A stretch of 64,000 nucleotides of DNA from a virus. The DNA is taken from the IMG/VR virus record IMGVR_UViG_3300032083_002615, positions 5,452 through 69,451 of that record; one strand, written 5' to 3'. The notes beneath the pieces are model-generated. The model was not told where the DNA came from. It ran no database searches and saw only the letters and a program-made list of their open reading frames with translations. A program made the position numbers and the translations under genes. Position 1 is the stretch's first letter; every line of letters begins with the position of its first letter. This document shows, in pieces, positions 5,258 through 60,880 of this stretch.

Positions 5258-5656
5258 ATGAAAAAGAAAAAACCAAATATAAAAACTATAATCAGACAAA
5301 TCGTTAGAGAAGAAGTTGCGATGGCTATTAAAGAGGTAATAACCGAATTAAATAAACCAACTGAATCTCAACCAAAACCACAAAAGAAAATAGTTGAGAA
5401 AAAATCATTTACATCTAATTCAGTATTGAATGATGTATTGAATGAAACAGCTCAAGATGATGAATGGAAAACAATGGGTGGTGGACAATATACTTCAGAT
5501 AGAATGAATGAAGTTATTGGGAAGAACTATGGTGATATGATGAATGGAACACAACCAGTTCCATCAAGTGACCCAATGAGTCAGTTCTTAAATAAAGATT
5601 ATAGTCAGGTATTAGAAAAGTCAATAGAAAAATCTAAAAACAAACTTGGAAGATAA
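5258..5656 (+). CDS. Hypothetical virion-associated protein
   Basis: Start moved to ATG 5258 after GAGG SD; 'IKTIIRQIVREEV' and 'LNE' motifs. Confidence 0.65.
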   Translation: MKKKKPNIKTIIRQIVREEVAMAIKEVITELNKPTESQPKPQKKIVEKKSFTSNSVLNDVLNETAQDDEWKTMGGGQYTSDRMNEVIGKNYGDMMNGTQPVPSSDPMSQFLNKDYSQVLEKSIEKSKNKLGR

Positions 5657-48316: not shown

Positions 48317-48691
48317 ATGTTTAAAAAATTATTTATATTTGGTTTAATGATTACATCACTCTTTGGTGTAAGAGAATTAACAGATGAGAATTTCAAGAAA
48401 GCAACCAATAGAGGTTTAGTGGCCGTTGAGTTTTGGGCTACTTGGAATGAAGTGAATAAAGTTACAGCAATTGATGAATGGGATTCATTTGATGCGAAAG
48501 TATATAGATTGAACATTGATAATTTTCCAAAAATTCAAGCTGACAATAATGTAGTAATACTTCCCACTATAATCTTTTTTGATGAAGGTGAAGAAGTACA
48601 ACGACTTCAAGGTGATATGACTTTTACCTTAAAGACAACAACAGATGAACTTGACGAAGTAGTTGAGGAAATACTCGGAAATAAGTTTTAG
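48317..48691 (+). CDS. Exported thioredoxin-fold protein lacking CxxC
   Basis: Signal peptide; ELTDENF...VEFWATWNEVN (WCxxC position), LPTIIFF..GEEV.RLQG; contains no Cys. Confidence 0.8.
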   Translation: MFKKLFIFGLMITSLFGVRELTDENFKKATNRGLVAVEFWATWNEVNKVTAIDEWDSFDAKVYRLNIDNFPKIQADNNVVILPTIIFFDEGEEVQRLQGDMTFTLKTTTDELDEVVEEILGNKF

Positions 48692-49651: not shown

Positions 49652-50212
49652 ATGTTAAAAGAGTTATTGCTAGCAACAATTGTATCAACATCACTAAGTG
49701 TAAGAACACCAAATGATGTAGAAAAAGAATTAGATTATGAGTTTTCTGTTAAAATTGAGAACACAAATAAAAATTTTCAATATTTATTAAAAAGAGATTG
49801 GGAAAGAGAATTAGGTGAAAAATACATAGATGATGTGTTTAAATTTTCACACACGATTAATGATTTTATTTATTATGGTGTGGATTATGTGAACAAAGAA
49901 TCAAAAGATATTTTTTACACAACTTATAACATTGGTATTGATGATAACGGATGGAAGTTTGGTTTATCAATAAAAGATAATGATAAGTTGGCTAGTTTAG
50001 GATACAATAAAAAATTAAAAAAAGATGATTTGGAATACAATGTAGGATTGTCTTTTAAATCTGATTTGGGTGAGAACAATATCATCAATCTAAAATCAGA
50101 AGTAAAGAAATGGCTAACAGAAAAGATTAATATATTTGGTTTATATAAACATGAGTATTACAATAAACAAGAAGACTTTCAATTTAAAGTCGGTTTAGGA
50201 GTTAAACTATGA
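49652..50212 (+). CDS. Small outer-membrane beta-barrel-like protein
   Basis: N-terminal hydrophobic leader; amphipathic strands; terminal FQFKVGLGVKL. Confidence 0.55.
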   Translation: MLKELLLATIVSTSLSVRTPNDVEKELDYEFSVKIENTNKNFQYLLKRDWERELGEKYIDDVFKFSHTINDFIYYGVDYVNKESKDIFYTTYNIGIDDNGWKFGLSIKDNDKLASLGYNKKLKKDDLEYNVGLSFKSDLGENNIINLKSEVKKWLTEKINIFGLYKHEYYNKQEDFQFKVGLGVKL

Positions 50213-50547
50213 AACTAACAAAAGAAACATTGAGAGAAATCATCAAAGAAGTGATTGCTGAAAATGATGGACATCCTCAGATTTTAAGAAAAAACAAAGA
50301 AGTTGCCCACAACTGAGCGACTCACATGGAGTGGAAGTCTTCCACTGATAAAGAAAAGTATGGTGATATGATTGGTGAAGTTATACACCACACATTATTT
50401 GAAGATGGAACTATTACAAAATACGATGTAAAGTTCGGAAATAAAACAATAAAAAACATCCCAACAGAAATGTTAGAGGTGGTGGAAATGAAAGAACATT
50501 CTCATAACCCAACTGAAGAGGATGAAGAGGAGAAAGACGATGAGTAA
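50209..50547 (+). CDS. Candidate selenoprotein (112 aa, in-frame TGA at codon 36, H-N-U-A-T-H), His-rich
   Basis: AGGAG SD at 50197-50201; ATGA overlap with the upstream stop; single TGA at 50314-50316 in frame with the tracked ORF 50326..50547; SECIS-like hairpin downstream. Confidence 0.7.
50330..50346 (+). promoter_or_regulatory. Putative bacterial SECIS element
   Basis: AGTGGAA-GTC-TTCCACT perfect 7-bp stem starting 14 nt after the TGA, with apical GU at +21/+22. Confidence 0.6.
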
Positions 50548-50602
50548 ATGCACATGTTGTGAAAATTGCAAATGTGAATGTAATTGTTGTGGAGATGAGT
50601 AG
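50540..50602 (+). CDS. 20-aa, 8-Cys metallothionein-like micropeptide MSKCTCCENCKCECNCCGDE
   Basis: AGGAG SD at 50528-50532; overlaps the upstream stop, and its TAG overlaps the downstream GTG at 50602, filling the gap exactly. Confidence 0.65.
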   Translation: MSKCTCCENCKCECNCCGDE

Positions 50603-51318
50603 TGATTAAATTAACATCATTATTAGTTGAACAAGAACAAGAAAACAAATATCCAGAGGATGCACCTAAACATTTTGGTGGTGGTGAGAACATTGATATA
50701 TTTGGTTATCAAACCAAACACTTTGATATTTGTAGGTCGGCTGTAACTTTGTATGAAAAGTTAAAAGAAAATGAAGAAGCAAAAGATTTAATCATTCAAA
50801 CAGCTAAAGATATGGACCATTTGTTTGAAATGGAAAAACAAGTTGTGGCTCAAGAACCAATGAACCACGACCCAATTGACCACGCCGTTAAATTGTGTAA
50901 TACGATTTCTTTTCAATTAGGTAGAATTGCAGAAATAACTGGACATGGTGAAGAAGAGGAAGATACACACTTCATTCAACTACATGTTAATGTAATCATT
51001 GATAGAGCTCAAAAACAAGAAATGACTAATGAAGATTTAAGAAAGTGGTTTAAAAAAGGTGGAACAGGTGGAACTACTGCTGGTGGTTGGGATAGATATA
51101 GTTCAACAGGTGAAAAACTTGGTAAATGTGGTGGTGGAAAAGAAGGTGAAGCATACGCTGCGTGTTTATCTGCAGCAAAAGCAGCAAAACTTGGAAAGAA
51201 AGGTATAGCGGCTTTTGTTAATAGAAAAAGAAGAGCACAGAAAAAAGGTGGTGACCCTAAAAAAGGTGGTGAGAGAAGAAAGGGACAAAAAACCATTAAG
51301 GTGAAAACAGGTGCGTAA
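50602..51318 (+). CDS. Probable internal head protein (MIKLTSLLVE leader; basic C-terminal module)
   Basis: Leader ending in LVE; EDLRKWF..GGWDR..GKC..AC basic module. Confidence 0.6.
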   Translation: MIKLTSLLVEQEQENKYPEDAPKHFGGGENIDIFGYQTKHFDICRSAVTLYEKLKENEEAKDLIIQTAKDMDHLFEMEKQVVAQEPMNHDPIDHAVKLCNTISFQLGRIAEITGHGEEEEDTHFIQLHVNVIIDRAQKQEMTNEDLRKWFKKGGTGGTTAGGWDRYSSTGEKLGKCGGGKEGEAYAACLSAAKAAKLGKKGIAAFVNRKRRAQKKGGDPKKGGERRKGQKTIKVKTGA

Positions 51319-52024
51319 AGCTTGTAATCCAAGAAGAAGAAAACCAGGTGAGAGTGAAGCTCAATATAGACAAAGATGTGGGCCAAGGCCATTAGGACAA
51401 ATTAAAATGGGTGAAAAAAAGAATCCAAGAATCCCAAGAAAAAAGGGACAACCAGCAGGTTCAAAGAAACATTCTGATTTATACACAGATGAAAACCCAA
51501 AAGGAACTATAAAAGGATTAAAGTTTGCAACTGTAAAAGATGCTAAGGCATCAGTCAGTAAAATTAAAGGTAGTGGTAAATCACATGCTCATAAGATTCA
51601 GGCTGCTGTTGCTATGGAACAAAGAGCAAGAGAGATGGGTAAAACATCTCAAGCAGCTGTTTATAGAGCATTCATCAATAAGATGAAAAAGATTACTAAA
51701 CAAAAAAATGAGGGTTGGAGTGAAAAATATAAAAAATCAATTGATTGTAACAACCCAAAAGGATTCAGTCAAAAAGCACATTGTACAGGAAAAAAGAAAA
51801 AATCGGAGAATGTAATGAAACTTACAAAGTCTAAATTAAGAGAAATGATTGAAGAAGAATACTTTAATTATCTTGTAGAAAAAAACGTACCAACAAATCC
51901 ATCTAAGTGGAGTTATTATAAATCACAAGCTAAAAAGAAGTTTGATGTATATCCATCGGCTTATGCAAATGCTTGGGCTGCTAAGATGTATAAAAAAGCT
52001 GGTGGTGGTTGGAAAAAGGGATAA
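51311..52024 (+). CDS. Highly basic modular protein (probable internal head protein)
   Basis: Modules RIPRKKGQPAGSKKHSDLYTDENPKGT, EGWSEKYKKSIDCNNPKGFSQKAHC and KKKFDVYPSAYAN.W..K.YK..GGGW, separated by xxE junctions. Confidence 0.6.
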   Translation: MRKACNPRRRKPGESEAQYRQRCGPRPLGQIKMGEKKNPRIPRKKGQPAGSKKHSDLYTDENPKGTIKGLKFATVKDAKASVSKIKGSGKSHAHKIQAAVAMEQRAREMGKTSQAAVYRAFINKMKKITKQKNEGWSEKYKKSIDCNNPKGFSQKAHCTGKKKKSENVMKLTKSKLREMIEEEYFNYLVEKNVPTNPSKWSYYKSQAKKKFDVYPSAYANAWAAKMYKKAGGGWKKG

Positions 52025-52026
52025 TT

Positions 52027-52449
52027 ATGAAAATCACAGAAAAAAGAGGAACTTGTTGGGTGGGATACAAACAAGTTGGTATGAAAGAAAAAGGTGGTAA
52101 AATGGTGCCTAATTGTGTTAAAGAAATTTACTATGAGGAAAATGGTAAAGGGTATGGGTACACGTTTGAATTTTATGGTGAGAATCTACAAGAGGCTGAA
52201 TACAAAGGTAGAAAAGTTAAACTTAATAAAATCATGCAAGGTGATAGAAAAAAGTTTAAGGTTTATGTAAAGAATGATAAAGGTAATGTTGTGGTGGTTC
52301 ATTTTGGACAAGGTGGTGATGCTAAGGGTGGAACGATGAGAATCAGAAAATCAAATCCAAAAGCTAGAAAATCATTTAGAGCACGACACAATTGTGATAA
52401 TCCAGGTCCTAAATACAAAGCTAGATATTGGGCGTGTAGAACATGGTAA
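52027..52449 (+). CDS. Basic modular protein (CWxGY...VPNCV plus ARKSFRARHNC modules)
   Basis: Start at ATG 52027; modules I recognise from hypothetical proteins of T4-like marine phages. Confidence 0.6.
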   Translation: MKITEKRGTCWVGYKQVGMKEKGGKMVPNCVKEIYYEENGKGYGYTFEFYGENLQEAEYKGRKVKLNKIMQGDRKKFKVYVKNDKGNVVVVHFGQGGDAKGGTMRIRKSNPKARKSFRARHNCDNPGPKYKARYWACRTW

Positions 52450-52607
52450 AATTAAAAAAATTATTAAACATTCAAGAGGGAAAGGCAGATAGAGCTTTTA
52501 CCAAAATCATTGGTTTATTAAGAAAAGAATCAAGAAAATTAAATGATGATGATTCATATGAGTTAAGCACTAAATTAAAGGCTTGGTTTAATAAAAATGT
52601 TATGTAA
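52443..52607 (+). CDS. 54-aa protein with MVKLKKLLNIQE leader, not in the ORF track
   Basis: Open frame filling the gap; same leader type as 45299 and 50602. Confidence 0.6.
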   Translation: MVKLKKLLNIQEGKADRAFTKIIGLLRKESRKLNDDDSYELSTKLKAWFNKNVM

Positions 52608-57117: not shown

Positions 57118-57463
57118 ATTACTATTGATATTATTACTATCTTTTTCATTCACACAAGACATTTGTGAAGGAACTTGTTTTTCAGAAGAGGAAGTACAGA
57201 ATATGTATAATAACATAAAAGCTCTTGAATTTAAAAGAGAAACTTGTGAAAGTGCTTATTTGAATTTTGAAAGTCAATTGGAAGAATGTGATGAATATAT
57301 AGATGAATGTGATGAACAAGCACAACTGTATAAAGAACAAATTAAAATTAAAGATGAAATGATAAAAACAATAAAACCAAAATGGTATGAAAACAAATAC
57401 CTTTGGTTCTTTGGTGGAGTTATATTTACAAGTGGTTCAGTATTTTTAGCAGGACAATTGTAA
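57107..57463 (+). CDS. Secreted coiled-coil protein with a C-terminal TM (spanin-like)
   Basis: Start moved to GTG 57107 behind GGAGG; signal peptide, coiled coil, KPKWYENKYLWFFGGVIF. Confidence 0.5.
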   Translation: MVTKLLLILLLSFSFTQDICEGTCFSEEEVQNMYNNIKALEFKRETCESAYLNFESQLEECDEYIDECDEQAQLYKEQIKIKDEMIKTIKPKWYENKYLWFFGGVIFTSGSVFLAGQL

Positions 57464-59076
57464 TGAGTGATTTAAAACAAGCGATACAAAGGGAGTATTT
57501 GAAGTGTGCATCTGACCCTGTACATTTTATGAGAAAGTATTGCACTATTCAACATCCTACGAAAGGTAAGGTTAAGTTTGATTTATACCCATTTCAAGAA
57601 AGATGTTTGACAGAGTTTAAAGACAATCGTTATAATATAATTTTAAAAGCTAGACAATTAGGTATATCTACTTTATCAGCTGGATATGCATTGTGGTTGA
57701 TGTTGTTTCACAATGATAAAAATATTCTTGTTATTGCAACTGGTAAAGACACTGCAAAAAACCTTGTTACAAAAGTAAGAGTAATGTATGACGGTTTACC
57801 TCAATGGTTAAAAACTGGAACAGAAGAAATAAATAAATTATCATTAAGATTTAAAAACGGTTCACAGATAAAAGCAATTGCATCTAATGAATCAGCAGGT
57901 CGTTCAGAAGCATTATCATTATTGATAATTGATGAGGCGGCGTTTATTGACAAGATTGATACAATATGGACTGCGGCACAACAAACACTTGCGACTGGTG
58001 GTGGTTGTATTGCTTTATCAACACCTAATGGTGTGGGTAATTGGTTTCATAAACAATGGATGGGTGCTGAAGAAGGCACGAATGAATTTCATACCATTAG
58101 ATTACATTGGACAGACCATCCTGATAGAACAGAAGAGTGGAGAAAAGAACAAGATAAGATTTTAGGACCTTCACAAGCAGCTCAAGAGTGTGATACAGAC
58201 TTTCTATCAAGTGGACAATCAGTGGTTGACCCACAGATTCTACAATGGTATAAAGATGAATTAACAGAAGCACCTGTTGAGGAGTTGGGAGTAGATAGAG
58301 GTTTATGGATATTTAGACAACCTGATTATACAAAAGAATACATAGTGGTTGCTGATGTGGCTCGTGGTGATGGAACGGATTTCTCAGCTTGTCAAGTGTT
58401 TGAAGTTGAAGATATGGAACAATGTGCAGAATATAAAGGACAATTAAGTACAACGGATTATGGAAACTTCTTAATTGAAGTTGCAACGAAATATAATGAT
58501 GCGTTATTAGTAGTTGAAAACAACAATATAGGTTGGGCTACAATACAAACCATCATAGATAGAGGATATAAGAATTTATTTTATCAATCAAAAGATTTAC
58601 AAGTGGTTGATGTTGAACATCAGATAAACAATAAGTATAGAGCACAAGATAGAAATATGGTACCTGGTTTCTCAACCACACAAAAAACTCGTCCATTGGT
58701 GATTGCAAAAATGGAAGAATATACGAGAGAAAAATTAGTGAAGATTCATTCAAATCGATTAATTGATGAATTGTTTGTATTTATATACAAGAGTGGAGTT
58801 TCACAATCAAAAGCAGAGGCAATGCAAGGTTATAACGATGACTTGGTTATGTCGTATTCAATAGCCCTTTGGGTTAGAGATACAGCGTTGAGATTACAGA
58901 AAGACAAAAATGACCAACAATGGGCAACAATGAACTCAATGTTGAAGTCAAATGGAAATCAATCTGAACACGCTGTAGGTTTCGGAGTAGGTTCTACTGG
59001 ACAACCACGAAAGAATCCATATGAAATGGATAATGGGGTGGGTGAAAAAGAAGATTTAACTTGGTTAATTAAATAA
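57463..59076 (+). CDS. Terminase large subunit (T4 gp17-like)
   Basis: LYPFQ, Walker A LKARQLGIST, Walker B LIIDEAAFI, STPNG, nuclease ADVARGDGTD, DDLVMS; start at ATG 57463. Confidence 0.95.
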   Translation: MSDLKQAIQREYLKCASDPVHFMRKYCTIQHPTKGKVKFDLYPFQERCLTEFKDNRYNIILKARQLGISTLSAGYALWLMLFHNDKNILVIATGKDTAKNLVTKVRVMYDGLPQWLKTGTEEINKLSLRFKNGSQIKAIASNESAGRSEALSLLIIDEAAFIDKIDTIWTAAQQTLATGGGCIALSTPNGVGNWFHKQWMGAEEGTNEFHTIRLHWTDHPDRTEEWRKEQDKILGPSQAAQECDTDFLSSGQSVVDPQILQWYKDELTEAPVEELGVDRGLWIFRQPDYTKEYIVVADVARGDGTDFSACQVFEVEDMEQCAEYKGQLSTTDYGNFLIEVATKYNDALLVVENNNIGWATIQTIIDRGYKNLFYQSKDLQVVDVEHQINNKYRAQDRNMVPGFSTTQKTRPLVIAKMEEYTREKLVKIHSNRLIDELFVFIYKSGVSQSKAEAMQGYNDDLVMSYSIALWVRDTALRLQKDKNDQQWATMNSMLKSNGNQSEHAVGFGVGSTGQPRKNPYEMDNGVGEKEDLTWLIK

Positions 59077-59086
59077 GAGGTAAAAA

Positions 59087-60880
59087 ATGGCAGACGAAAA
59101 TATATTAACGAGATTAGGAAAATTATTCCAAAATCAAATCGTAGTTAGAAAAACAGACGATGGACAAGTAAAAGTCAAAGATGTCGAGTTTTCTCAAACT
59201 GCATTAACATCAAATTTTATTGATAGATACAATAGAATTAATTCAAGTGGATATGGTGGTTCATCATATCAAGCTAAACAAAATGCAAATGCATATGACG
59301 TGGCTCGAAAAGAGTTGTTTAGAGATTATGAATTAATGGATGCTGACCCAATCATATCATCTGCATTAGATATTTATTGTGATGAATCTACGGTTGATAA
59401 TATTGAAAACAGAATAATGAAAATCAAAACCGACAATCCAAAAGTCCATAAAATTTTACATAATCTGTTTTATGATATAATGAATATTGAATTTAATCTA
59501 TGGAGTTATATAAGAAATATGGCTAAATACGGTGATTTTTATTTACATTTAGATATATTGGATAAACACGGAGTTGTGAATGTAAAACCTCTTTCAGTAT
59601 ATGAAGTGAATAGATTAGAAGGGCATGACCCATCAAATCCTAAATTGGTTCAATTTGAAGTTCAACAATATTCAGAAACAAGAAGAAGTAATAAACCAAA
59701 TGATATTCACGAAAATTATGAAGTAGCTCACTTTAGAAATATGGCAGATACAAACTACCTACCTTACGGTAAATCAATGTTAGAGGGTGCAAGAAGAGTA
59801 TTTAAACAATTAACTCTTATGGAAGATGCTATGTTGATTCATAGAATGATGAGAGCACCAGAGAAAAGAATATTCAAAGTAGACATTGGAAACATTCCAC
59901 CGAATGAGGTTGATAACTTTATGCAACAAATCATTGGTAAGATGAAAAAAACACCTGTGATGAATGCAAATGGTGAATATAATTTGAAATACAATATGGA
60001 ATCCATTACAGAAGATTATTATTTACCTGTTCGTGGTGGTGATAGTGGAACGAATATTGATACTTTACCAGGTTTGGGTAATGATGGTGCGATTGAAGAT
60101 GTTGAGTATTTAAGAAACAAAATGATGGCAGCGTTGAAAATACCAAAAGCATTTTTAGGATATGATGAAAATGTAGGTTCAAAAGCTACATTGGCTGCTG
60201 AAGATGTAAGATTTGCAAGAACGATTGAAAGACTACAAAAAATCATTGTAGCAGAATTAGAAAAAATAGCTATCGTTCATTTATACACACAAGGATTTGA
60301 TGATGCAGAATTGATTAATTTTGAATTAGAATTAACAAATCCATCAATGATACATCAACAAGAGAAGTTAGAATTATTAACACAGAAAAAAGAAATCGCT
60401 AATGACTTGATTGAAAACAAATTATTTTCAAGACAATGGATATATGATAATATCTTTGAATTAAACGACCAAGAGAAAGTGGATGTATTCAATGGTGTGA
60501 TTGAAGATAGAAAACAAGCATTTAGAATGGAACAGATTGAAACTGAGGGAACAGACCCAGCCGAAGGTGGTGGTGAAGAACCAGATGGTGATGATGAGTT
60601 TGAAGAACAAGTCGGACAACATGGTGGTGATAGAAGAAGTGGAACTGGTAAGAAAGAATTTGGGAATGAATACTCAGCAAAAGACTTAAAAGATGCAACA
60701 AAATACGAAAGAGAACGATATGGAAAACGAGAGTTTAAAGGTAAATCACCATTAGCTATGGGTAAAGGTGGAACGATTGTTGCAAGAGAGGGATTGTTAA
60801 ATCAATTAAAAGATAAGTTTGGTAAAGATTTAGACAAATCAATCTTGAATGAAGAAATAATTATAGATGATGAAGAATAA
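59087..60880 (+). CDS. Portal protein (T4 gp20-like)
   Basis: QLTLMEDAMLIHRMMRAPEKRIFKVDIGN, EDYYLPVRGG..GT.IDTLPG, ALKIPKAFL. Confidence 0.95.
   Translation: MADENILTRLGKLFQNQIVVRKTDDGQVKVKDVEFSQTALTSNFIDRYNRINSSGYGGSSYQAKQNANAYDVARKELFRDYELMDADPIISSALDIYCDESTVDNIENRIMKIKTDNPKVHKILHNLFYDIMNIEFNLWSYIRNMAKYGDFYLHLDILDKHGVVNVKPLSVYEVNRLEGHDPSNPKLVQFEVQQYSETRRSNKPNDIHENYEVAHFRNMADTNYLPYGKSMLEGARRVFKQLTLMEDAMLIHRMMRAPEKRIFKVDIGNIPPNEVDNFMQQIIGKMKKTPVMNANGEYNLKYNMESITEDYYLPVRGGDSGTNIDTLPGLGNDGAIEDVEYLRNKMMAALKIPKAFLGYDENVGSKATLAAEDVRFARTIERLQKIIVAELEKIAIVHLYTQGFDDAELINFELELTNPSMIHQQEKLELLTQKKEIANDLIENKLFSRQWIYDNIFELNDQEKVDVFNGVIEDRKQAFRMEQIETEGTDPAEGGGEEPDGDDEFEEQVGQHGGDRRSGTGKKEFGNEYSAKDLKDATKYERERYGKREFKGKSPLAMGKGGTIVAREGLLNQLKDKFGKDLDKSILNEEIIIDDEE

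Follow-up and report, generated by a model that had tools for sequence, protein, structure and literature searches.

In bacterial genes that depend on SelB, of which fdhF of Escherichia coli is the prototype, a UGA codon aligns with a cysteine (Cys) of the homologues, and a small stem-loop whose loop starts with G-U lies 3' of this UGA within the coding sequence. The gene described here resembles them in both respects and is carried by an uncultured marine phage of the T4-like kind. It occupies positions 50209-50547 (plus strand) of a 64,000-nucleotide stretch of DNA, referred to below as the window, which corresponds to positions 5,452 to 69,451 of the IMG/VR virus record IMGVR_UViG_3300032083_002615. 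An initial annotation of the window had proposed that an in-frame UGA in this gene is read as selenocysteine (Sec). We followed up this proposal by computational analysis and find that positions 50209-50547 most likely form a single gene, predicted from its sequence to encode a 112-residue selenoprotein.

Selenoproteins of phages are very rarely described. The only viral examples named in the available text of one source are two poxvirus glutathione peroxidases (GPx), from molluscum contagiosum virus and fowlpox virus (PMC8310308). Our literature searches on phage selenoproteins found no report of a selenoprotein from a virus of bacteria. In the available text of a 2026 review of prokaryotic selenoproteomes the words 'phage', 'virus' and 'viral' have 0 occurrences (PMC13188914), and in that of the Global Ocean Sampling selenoproteome paper phage is mentioned 0 times (PMC2398784). 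The latter describes two marine metagenomic Sec/Cys families under the function-less labels GOS_A (2 Sec, 155 Cys) and GOS_B (11 Sec, 125 Cys) (PMC2398784).

RESULTS

The in-frame UGA is conserved and aligns with an invariant cysteine

The coordinates that the initial annotation gave for the start of the gene were all confirmed: an AGGAG Shine-Dalgarno (SD) sequence precedes ATG 50209, and this ATG (50209-50211) overlaps the stop codon TGA of the upstream gene (50210-50212). The frame runs for 35 codons to a single TGA and, past it (ATHMEWK...), stays open as annotated, up to the TAA at 50545-50547.

We scanned viral contigs with the read-through protein as the query and obtained five relatives (72-90% identity), all five with TGA at the same codon. 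Metagenome contigs were scanned with patterns located downstream of the TGA only ([AS]THMEWK and [TA]DKE[KR]YGD), so that the TGA codon was not selected for by the search. A relative was encoded by 117 of 333 stretches, and the best 80 of the 117 were kept. One of these (L114), in which the motif required by our script was not found, was left out of the count; the other 79 loci all had TGA at codon 36, each with an upstream in-frame open reading frame (ORF) and its own ATG. Counting the window and the five viral relatives as well, 85 of 85 copies had TGA at codon 36, and both halves of the gene shared one frame in every copy.

We then asked which codon occupies this position in more distant relatives. 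A profile scan of viral contigs yielded 342 relatives among 489 stretches. In the best 80 of the 342, the aligned codon was TGT in 69 cases and TGC in 2, and five were members of the TGA clade; four lacked the motif sought by our expression. Thus, the Cys/TGA alternation at codon 36 that the initial annotation had anticipated, with homology on both sides, is seen as 71 Cys-form loci versus TGA in all 85 copies. The relatives that it had described as H-x-C-A-x-H were found as H-D-C-A-N-H or H-[DS]-C-A-[KT]-K, and four named cyanophage proteins also have Cys at the position aligned with the UGA. The invariant columns of a 27-sequence alignment were H34, U/C36, H61, E65, D66, G67, T70, Y72, D73, P85, L89, H97 and H99; the UGA is therefore at an invariant-Cys position amid four invariant histidines (H34, H61, H97 and H99). 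A tblastn search of cultured phages gave 192 records, all from cyanophages except one 'Marine' record, with single segments that cross the UGA position (query residues 13-99). When the full-length products of four viral relatives were aligned, length differences were confined to the N-terminal leader and the C-terminal tail.

The TGA was also checked in contigs assembled from reads. Those from two DNA runs and one RNA library (X1, X10 and X15) had only TGA at 50314-50316, with no other letter, and contigs from the same runs were polymorphic nearby (50310, 50325, 50344 and 50346). Contigs of the RNA library (X15) cover the gene and could be DNA carry-over; coverage by X18 was limited to 50667-50700. 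Neither an error of sequencing nor a nonsense mutation of recent date can account for the TGA.

Both sides of the UGA evolve as one translated frame

Substitution rates were determined from 72 full-length copies (63 unique sequences, to which the following counts refer). Codons 1-35 had a ratio of nonsynonymous to synonymous rates (pN/pS) of 0.19, with 0.085 in the segment 20-35, and the ratio of codons 37-100 was 0.20. Ala-Thr-His, the three codons that separate the UGA from the next ATG, varied at their third positions (50319, 50322 and 50325; pS 0.27 versus pN 0.011). The flanks of the UGA evolve as one translated frame under purifying selection. As the Ala-Thr-His codons belong to the family motif H-x-C-A-x-H, a reading as two separate genes is disfavoured.

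The codon immediately 5' of the UGA (50311-50313, plus strand) was AAC in 63 of 63 sequences, unlike the Asn codons at positions 29 and 83, which switch between AAC and AAT. The fixed AAC may be a context requirement of recoding.

A hairpin downstream of the UGA is constrained at the RNA level

The initial annotation had described a perfect 7-bp hairpin, AGTGGAA-GTC-TTCCACT, at 50330-50346. In the window this pairing is as described, and the apical G and U are indeed nucleotides (nt) 21 and 22 after the UGA; the spacer between UGA and loop is 20 nt long (50317-50336), with indels in 0 copies. The loop presumably resembles that of the E. coli fdhF Sec insertion sequence (SECIS). The seventh pair did not stand up among the homologues. 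The 3' arm of 82 copies ended in ...TTCCACC in 54 (outer pair lost), in ...TTCCGCT in 14 (U.G wobble) and in ...TTCCACT in 12, and the remaining two had a GTT loop in one case and ...TTCTACC (G.U wobble) in the other. The outermost A-U or wobble pair was hence kept in 26 of 82 copies (12 ...CACT and 14 ...CGCT) and is not conserved; the conserved element is the 6-bp core GUGGAA/UUCCAC with the loop GUC (50331-50345). Among 21 distinct rows, the outer pair was unpaired in 11, four pairs were invariant and two varied on one side only with wobble retained, the two variable positions of the core stem changing to G.U pairs only.

Is this conservation explained by the protein sequence? The hairpin contains four degenerate codons, GAG, AAG, TCT and TCC, each of which is a minor one in this phage (usage within the family 17.7%, 14.1%, 17.8% and 3.5%, respectively), yet they were fixed in 63, 63, 62 and 62 of the 63 unique sequences. 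Synonymous sites 50331, 50337 and 50340 were invariant, and 50343 was C in 62 of 63. The mean minor-synonymous fraction was 0.4% for the hairpin codons versus 14% for 76 other codons, and among 77 runs of four consecutive degenerate codons the hairpin had the lowest value. The hairpin is under RNA-level constraint, and the conservation expected among TGA-bearing homologues held at synonymous sites.

We compared the hairpin with the bacterial SECIS (bSECIS) model, which in the available text of its source has an apical loop of 3-9 nt on an upper stem of 4-16 bp, a G within the first two nucleotides of the loop with G or U after it, a distance of 16-37 nt from UGA to apical loop and a minimum free energy of <= -7.5 kcal/mol (PMC13188914). 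The candidate has a 3-nt loop on a 6-bp conserved stem (7 bp in the window) at a distance of 20 nt. The loop reads G-U-C (G-U-U in 1 of 82 copies), and G 50337 never varies. The energies are given below, where the proposal is weighed.

Similar hairpins were sought elsewhere. In the search for the hairpin after a UGA in unrelated phage genes, a 16-letter pattern matched 53 stretches of viral contigs, none with a convincing in-frame UGA and coding sequence on either side. In species genomes, at least 120 stretches combined the hairpin with a UGA at 12-16 nt, with no low-GC marine candidate among the matches listed. Most of these look-alikes (loci L233-L352) were one conserved Oscillospiraceae/Clostridia sequence, whose TGA frame is open for 8 + 14 codons only. 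This barely open frame indicates a conserved gene read out of frame and not a SECIS.

The features of the gene are collected in Table 1.

Table 1. Coordinates of the features of the candidate selenoprotein gene in the window
Feature	Position	Strand	Remark
Shine-Dalgarno AGGAG	50197..50201	+	7 nt before ATG 50209
Read-through coding sequence, 112 codons (UGA = codon 36), plus TAA	50209..50547	+	frame with ATG start in 85/85 copies
N-terminal leader, codons 1-18, MKLTKETLREIIKEVIAE, ends [IL]-[AS]-E	50209..50262	+	E18 in 63/63
His34 codon	50308..50310	+	upstream of UGA; invariant family-wide in alignments
In-frame UGA, codon 36, probably read as selenocysteine	50314..50316	+	TGA in 85/85 of clade; TGT/TGC in 71 distant loci
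Ala37-Thr38-His39 codons, UGA to next ATG	50317..50325	+	evolve as codons; pS 0.27, pN 0.011
ATG (Met40), ORF-caller start of 73-amino-acid ORF	50326..50328	+	no SD motif 5'; aligns with Val or Met in Cys forms
Hairpin core GUGGAA-GUC-UUCCAC, 6 bp, 3-nt loop, candidate bacterial SECIS	50331..50345	+	synonymous-site conservation
His61 codon, invariant	50389..50391	+	alignments
His97-x-His99, both invariant	50497..50505	+	alignments

Alternative explanations of the in-frame UGA

Could the UGA reflect a property of the whole genome or of the data? TGA is the rarest stop of the 48 long ORFs in the window (TAA 27, TAG 17, TGA 4; the four at 1782, 27647, 38882 and 50212), and the genome is AT-rich, which would suit a UGA reassigned throughout the genome, with a host of code 4 or code 25, or a suppressor tRNA of the phage. 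The same long ORFs contain TGG 175 times and TGT 111 times. Of the TGAs in the window, only that at 50314 interrupts a frame whose two parts are both credibly coding, and the gene is likewise the single credible interrupted one in a relative of 168,793 bases that is 95% complete (G005). There are no tRNA genes in the window, and the relative has only tRNA-Ala(TGC) and tRNA-Pro(TGG). Reassignment is thus exceedingly unlikely, and the initial annotation was right to discount it: TGA ends 4 of 48 long ORFs, with a single credible case of interruption across the 64 kb. One internal stop codon in a short gene, on a contig of an uncultured phage, might equally mark a pseudogene or an artefact of sequencing or assembly. 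This explanation is refuted by the presence of the TGA in all 85 copies, which come from many independent assemblies, by purifying selection on both sides and by three runs in which no alternative letter was found; its probability is negligible.

Two other explanations accept the UGA as real. In one, it is a true stop, and termination-reinitiation across a 9-nt gap yields a 35-residue peptide and a 73-residue protein from ATG 50326, which maybe reassemble. That ATG is kept in all copies and is the one chosen by ORF callers, overlapping or abutting genes are the usual arrangement in the operon of the window, and a conserved stop would equally explain the 85 of 85. Yet the 9-nt 'spacer' evolves as three codons and encodes A37 and H39 of a motif that is continuous in all Cys forms; the invariant H34 would be left on a separate peptide; and the halves are never out of frame in 85 copies. 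Moreover, the 18 nt 5' of ATG 50326 (CACAACTGAGCGACTCAC) contain no AGGA, GGAG or GAGG motif, so the annotated lack of a convincing SD is upheld, whereas SD-like motifs stand upstream of 27 of the 48 long ORFs of the window versus a background of 7% (52-66% of long ORFs when the 95%-complete relative is included). A hairpin 3-4 nt past the start codon would presumably also hinder initiation. On balance we regard a split gene as improbable. In the other explanation the UGA is read through without selenium, at low efficiency, by a near-cognate tRNA (Trp, Cys or other) with the hairpin as stimulator. UGA read-through is known in a phage, Qbeta, where it gives the coat extension; the present hairpin has little stability and no covariation, and no Sec machinery could be tied to the system. 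What speaks against it is the residue itself: an invariant Cys site flanked by invariant His implies that the identity of this residue is important, and of the amino acids that UGA can encode only Sec is functionally equivalent to Cys. TGT would serve for Cys and is in use in the long ORFs, yet 0 of 85 copies have reverted to it, and the position and G-U loop of the hairpin fit a SelB-type model. This explanation, too, has a low probability.

Insertion of Sec at UGA36 by the SelB of the host is in our opinion the best reading of the sequence evidence, and a probable one. A conserved UGA, a Sec/Cys pair, selection as one frame and a hairpin maintained on rare codons are together the standard computational signature of a selenoprotein of the bacterial type, and the comparisons support the Sec proposed in the initial annotation. 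Several observations weigh against it. The case is built on sequence evidence. Met40 is fixed in every copy, which is compatible with a downstream start as well. TGA is confined to one clade and no independent second origin was seen: a degenerate pattern found 0 TGA-bearing clades beyond this one, its 11 stretches being four members of this clade and seven out-of-frame matches to Cys forms. No pair of the stem was altered on both sides (0 of 7 pairs in the 21 distinct rows, where little variation is available), so the hairpin structure is supported by conservation and not by covariation, which the initial annotation had suggested as a check. For a 71-nt fold z was -0.73, and 50 of 200 shuffled sequences did equally well; the hairpin by itself gave -6.0 to -6.6 kcal/mol, weaker than the -7.5 threshold of the model; for the 45 nt after the UGA the values were -8.1 (window), -8.7, -8.6 and -7.4 kcal/mol, the energy depending on the stretch folded. 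An Rfam scan of 50100-50600 (E <= 10) gave noise matches only and no family.

The remaining points against Sec concern its supply. No tRNA-Sec was found in the six phage records searched, which include the 95%-complete relative, and profiles of SelA, SelB and SelD had no matches in five phage records, again including that relative; the absence of Sec machinery noted in the initial annotation for the window thus extends to these records. A search of five phage records for a second selenoprotein (SelW-like, Rdx family) gave no credible match; the one match obtained (E 0.0068) contains 5 stops.

The protein is predicted to contain a small beta-barrel

Profile matches were found to phrog_764 ('cytidyltransferase', E 1.1e-6), phrog_22379 (E 1.6e-6) and also phrog_11470. 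At E <= 0.01 neither the window protein nor the full-length one of P-HM1 matched any Pfam family, and the profile of the Cys form had no sequence relatives in the PDB (best E 0.09). We rejected an identity as cytidylyltransferase: neither Pfam nor the PDB gave a recognisable nucleotidyltransferase domain, and the predicted fold is a small beta-barrel. An AlphaFold2 model built on the 27-row alignment had a predicted local distance difference test score of 70 overall and 74-90 for residues 31-100. It consists of an N-terminal helix (5-19), a low-confidence linker and six strands, and fold searches returned generic SH3/KOW/Tudor-like barrels only (best Z 5.3 with a root-mean-square deviation of 2.8 over 56 residues and many ties; best Foldseek E 0.52). 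In the model H34 and U36 are on the strand 31-42, H61 is on 56-63, and H97 and H99 are on 89-99. From these strand positions only, we infer that the five residues would cluster into one metal or redox site.

The leader (Table 1) has E18 encoded by GAA in 63 of 63 unique sequences, I or L at codon 16 in 62 of 63 and [IL]-[AS]-E in at least 61 of 63, and the gene lies ~7 kb upstream of terminase and portal. The leaders that target internal proteins of T4 to the capsid are short, end in (L/I)-x-E and are cut by the prohead protease. By analogy, the leader is possibly a capsid-targeting, prohead-protease leader. It is a further step, and a rather unlikely one, to suppose that a selenoprotein of this phage-only family is targeted by its leader into the capsid, trimmed by the prohead protease and carried by the virion into the cell with the DNA, as a His4-Sec metal or redox centre. 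If this were true, selenium dependence would link both the host range of the phage and some of the marine demand for selenium to the selABCD genes of the host.

A leader-like M-K-L-T-K-x-x-L-R-E recurs inside a 237-amino-acid ORF at 51311-52024 on the plus strand (MKLTKSKLREMIEEE), and a related M-x-K-L-x-x-L-L-x-E is present at the starts of neighbouring genes (50602 and 52443).

Neighbouring genes

The stop of the candidate gene is overlapped by a 20-codon ORF (50540-50602, plus strand) with 8 Cys (CxCC, CxCxC and CC), which extends to the GTG of the gene that follows. One relative (L003) has a similar Cys-rich ORF start, and in two others (L001 and L005) the Sec protein ends in ...EEGSCS. 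One RNA-library contig skips 65 bases, from 50537 to 50603, which is essentially this ORF. The Cys-rich ORF is a variable insert; that it is metallothionein-like is a guess.

A thioredoxin-fold protein (PF00085, E 9e-9) with a signal-like N-terminus is encoded at 48317-48691 (plus strand); CxxC is absent from it, the site reading W-A-T-W-N-E-V-N. The ORF at 52009-52449 (plus strand) has a module C-W-x-G-Y-K ... G-G-K-x-V-P-N-C-V in common with the C-terminus of the multidomain protein PHM1_163 of phage P-HM1 (L008), and the proteins of the cyanophages have the appearance of fusions between small modules, each of which is a gene of its own in the window. The DNA at 51423-51802 and 52166-52450 is 68-77% identical to that of cyanophages (P-TIM68 and S-SM2) and Pelagibacter phages (Mosig, Aegir, Kolga and HTVC111P). 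It seems that such modules of small basic proteins are exchanged among phages whose hosts differ.

The phage and its host

The window comes from a virus record of 69,451 bases, for which CheckV gives an estimated completeness of 37%; the G+C content is 31%. Among the genes of the window is a T4-like structural module with a baseplate wedge, the large terminase (57403-59076) and the portal (59087-60880). The portal is nearest to that of Microcystis phage Mel-JY01 (53% identity), followed by that of Flavobacterium phage immuto (48%), with only ~26% identity to cyanomyovirus portals, and the order of a large nucleotidyltransferase-like gene, terminase and portal is immuto-like.

Which bacteria might this phage infect? 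SD-like motifs precede 52% of the long ORFs in the window and 66% in the 95%-complete relative, compared to 2% in immuto, 36% in Pelagibacter phage Mosig, 25% in Prochlorococcus phage P-HM1 and 32% in Microcystis phage Mel-JY01. Because of the 52-66% versus the 2% in immuto, the host seems to use SD sequences strongly, and a Bacteroidota host seems unlikely despite the kinship of the portals. Among 185,579 bacterial species genomes, 0 relatives of the protein were confirmed. When genomes were sampled from the class to which the alphaproteobacterial metagenome-assembled genome G006 belongs, 54 of 401 had SelB, all 54 being at least 2.3 Mb in size, which points to no particular host. In Synechococcus elongatus, the only cyanobacterium among the control genomes, SelB had no match above the cut-off.

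DISCUSSION

The mechanism that we propose is as follows. Host ribosomes would arrive at UGA36, where the SelB of the host with Sec-tRNA(Sec) would bind the hairpin, the stem of which starts 14 nt and the G-U-C loop 20 nt after the UGA, and SelB would deliver Sec in place of termination. The Sec would then take the place of the invariant Cys in the H-x-C ... H ... H-x-H cluster of a small all-beta (SH3-like) domain. The machinery would be supplied by selABCD of the host; as the phage encodes none of it, the gene would work only in a Sec-competent host. The Sec identity of the inserted residue, the reading of the hairpin by SelB, the part of host selABCD and the function of the protein are what we infer here.

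If confirmed, the gene would extend Sec coding to viruses of bacteria. A phage that needs SelB and tRNA-Sec would be fully functional only in Sec-competent hosts, so that the gene would provide a testable marker of host range. Gene callers cut it to the 73-amino-acid ORF in every copy, which means that a widespread marine phage protein is mis-annotated. The family would also supply a Sec/Cys pair that occurs in nature, at a site rich in His, with the Cys form in cyanophages.

How does the gene compare with known Sec systems and with its own relatives? The cyanophage proteins labelled 'possible cytitidyltransferase' (phrog_764, phrog_22379 and phrog_11470; P-HM1 PHM1_163 and Syn33_183) contain a homologous domain of ~75 residues, which has in common with the window protein H-x-C ... 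H-T-L-x-E-D-G-x-[IV]-T-x-Y-D ... P ... L ... H-x-H. In the cyanophage domain the Cys is encoded by TGT or TGC and the motif reads H-D-C-A-K-K or H-S-C-A-T-K (four records). There it forms part of larger proteins, of 435 (P-HM1) to ~630 amino acids, while the window protein is a stand-alone one of 112 residues with a predicted Sec. GOS_A and GOS_B are like the window family in being marine, in their Sec/Cys forms and in their bacterial-type SECIS (PMC2398784), and one of them may be the window family.

According to the available text on the poxvirus selenoproteins, these are likewise encoded by the virus and decoded entirely by the host, and the fowlpox SECIS is also located in the coding region; they differ in belonging to eukaryotic viruses, with eukaryotic SECIS elements and captured host GPx genes (PMC8310308). 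The window gene, by contrast, is that of a virus of bacteria; its hairpin is of the bacterial type and its protein family is specific to phages. Unlike the selenoprotein genes of bacteria, it is carried by a phage without Sec machinery and has no cellular family member among the species genomes searched. Its hairpin is shorter and weaker than the energy threshold of the bSECIS model. Thus, the proposed mechanism, SelB with a hairpin inside the ORF, is the known bacterial one, while the carrier and the protein family are new.

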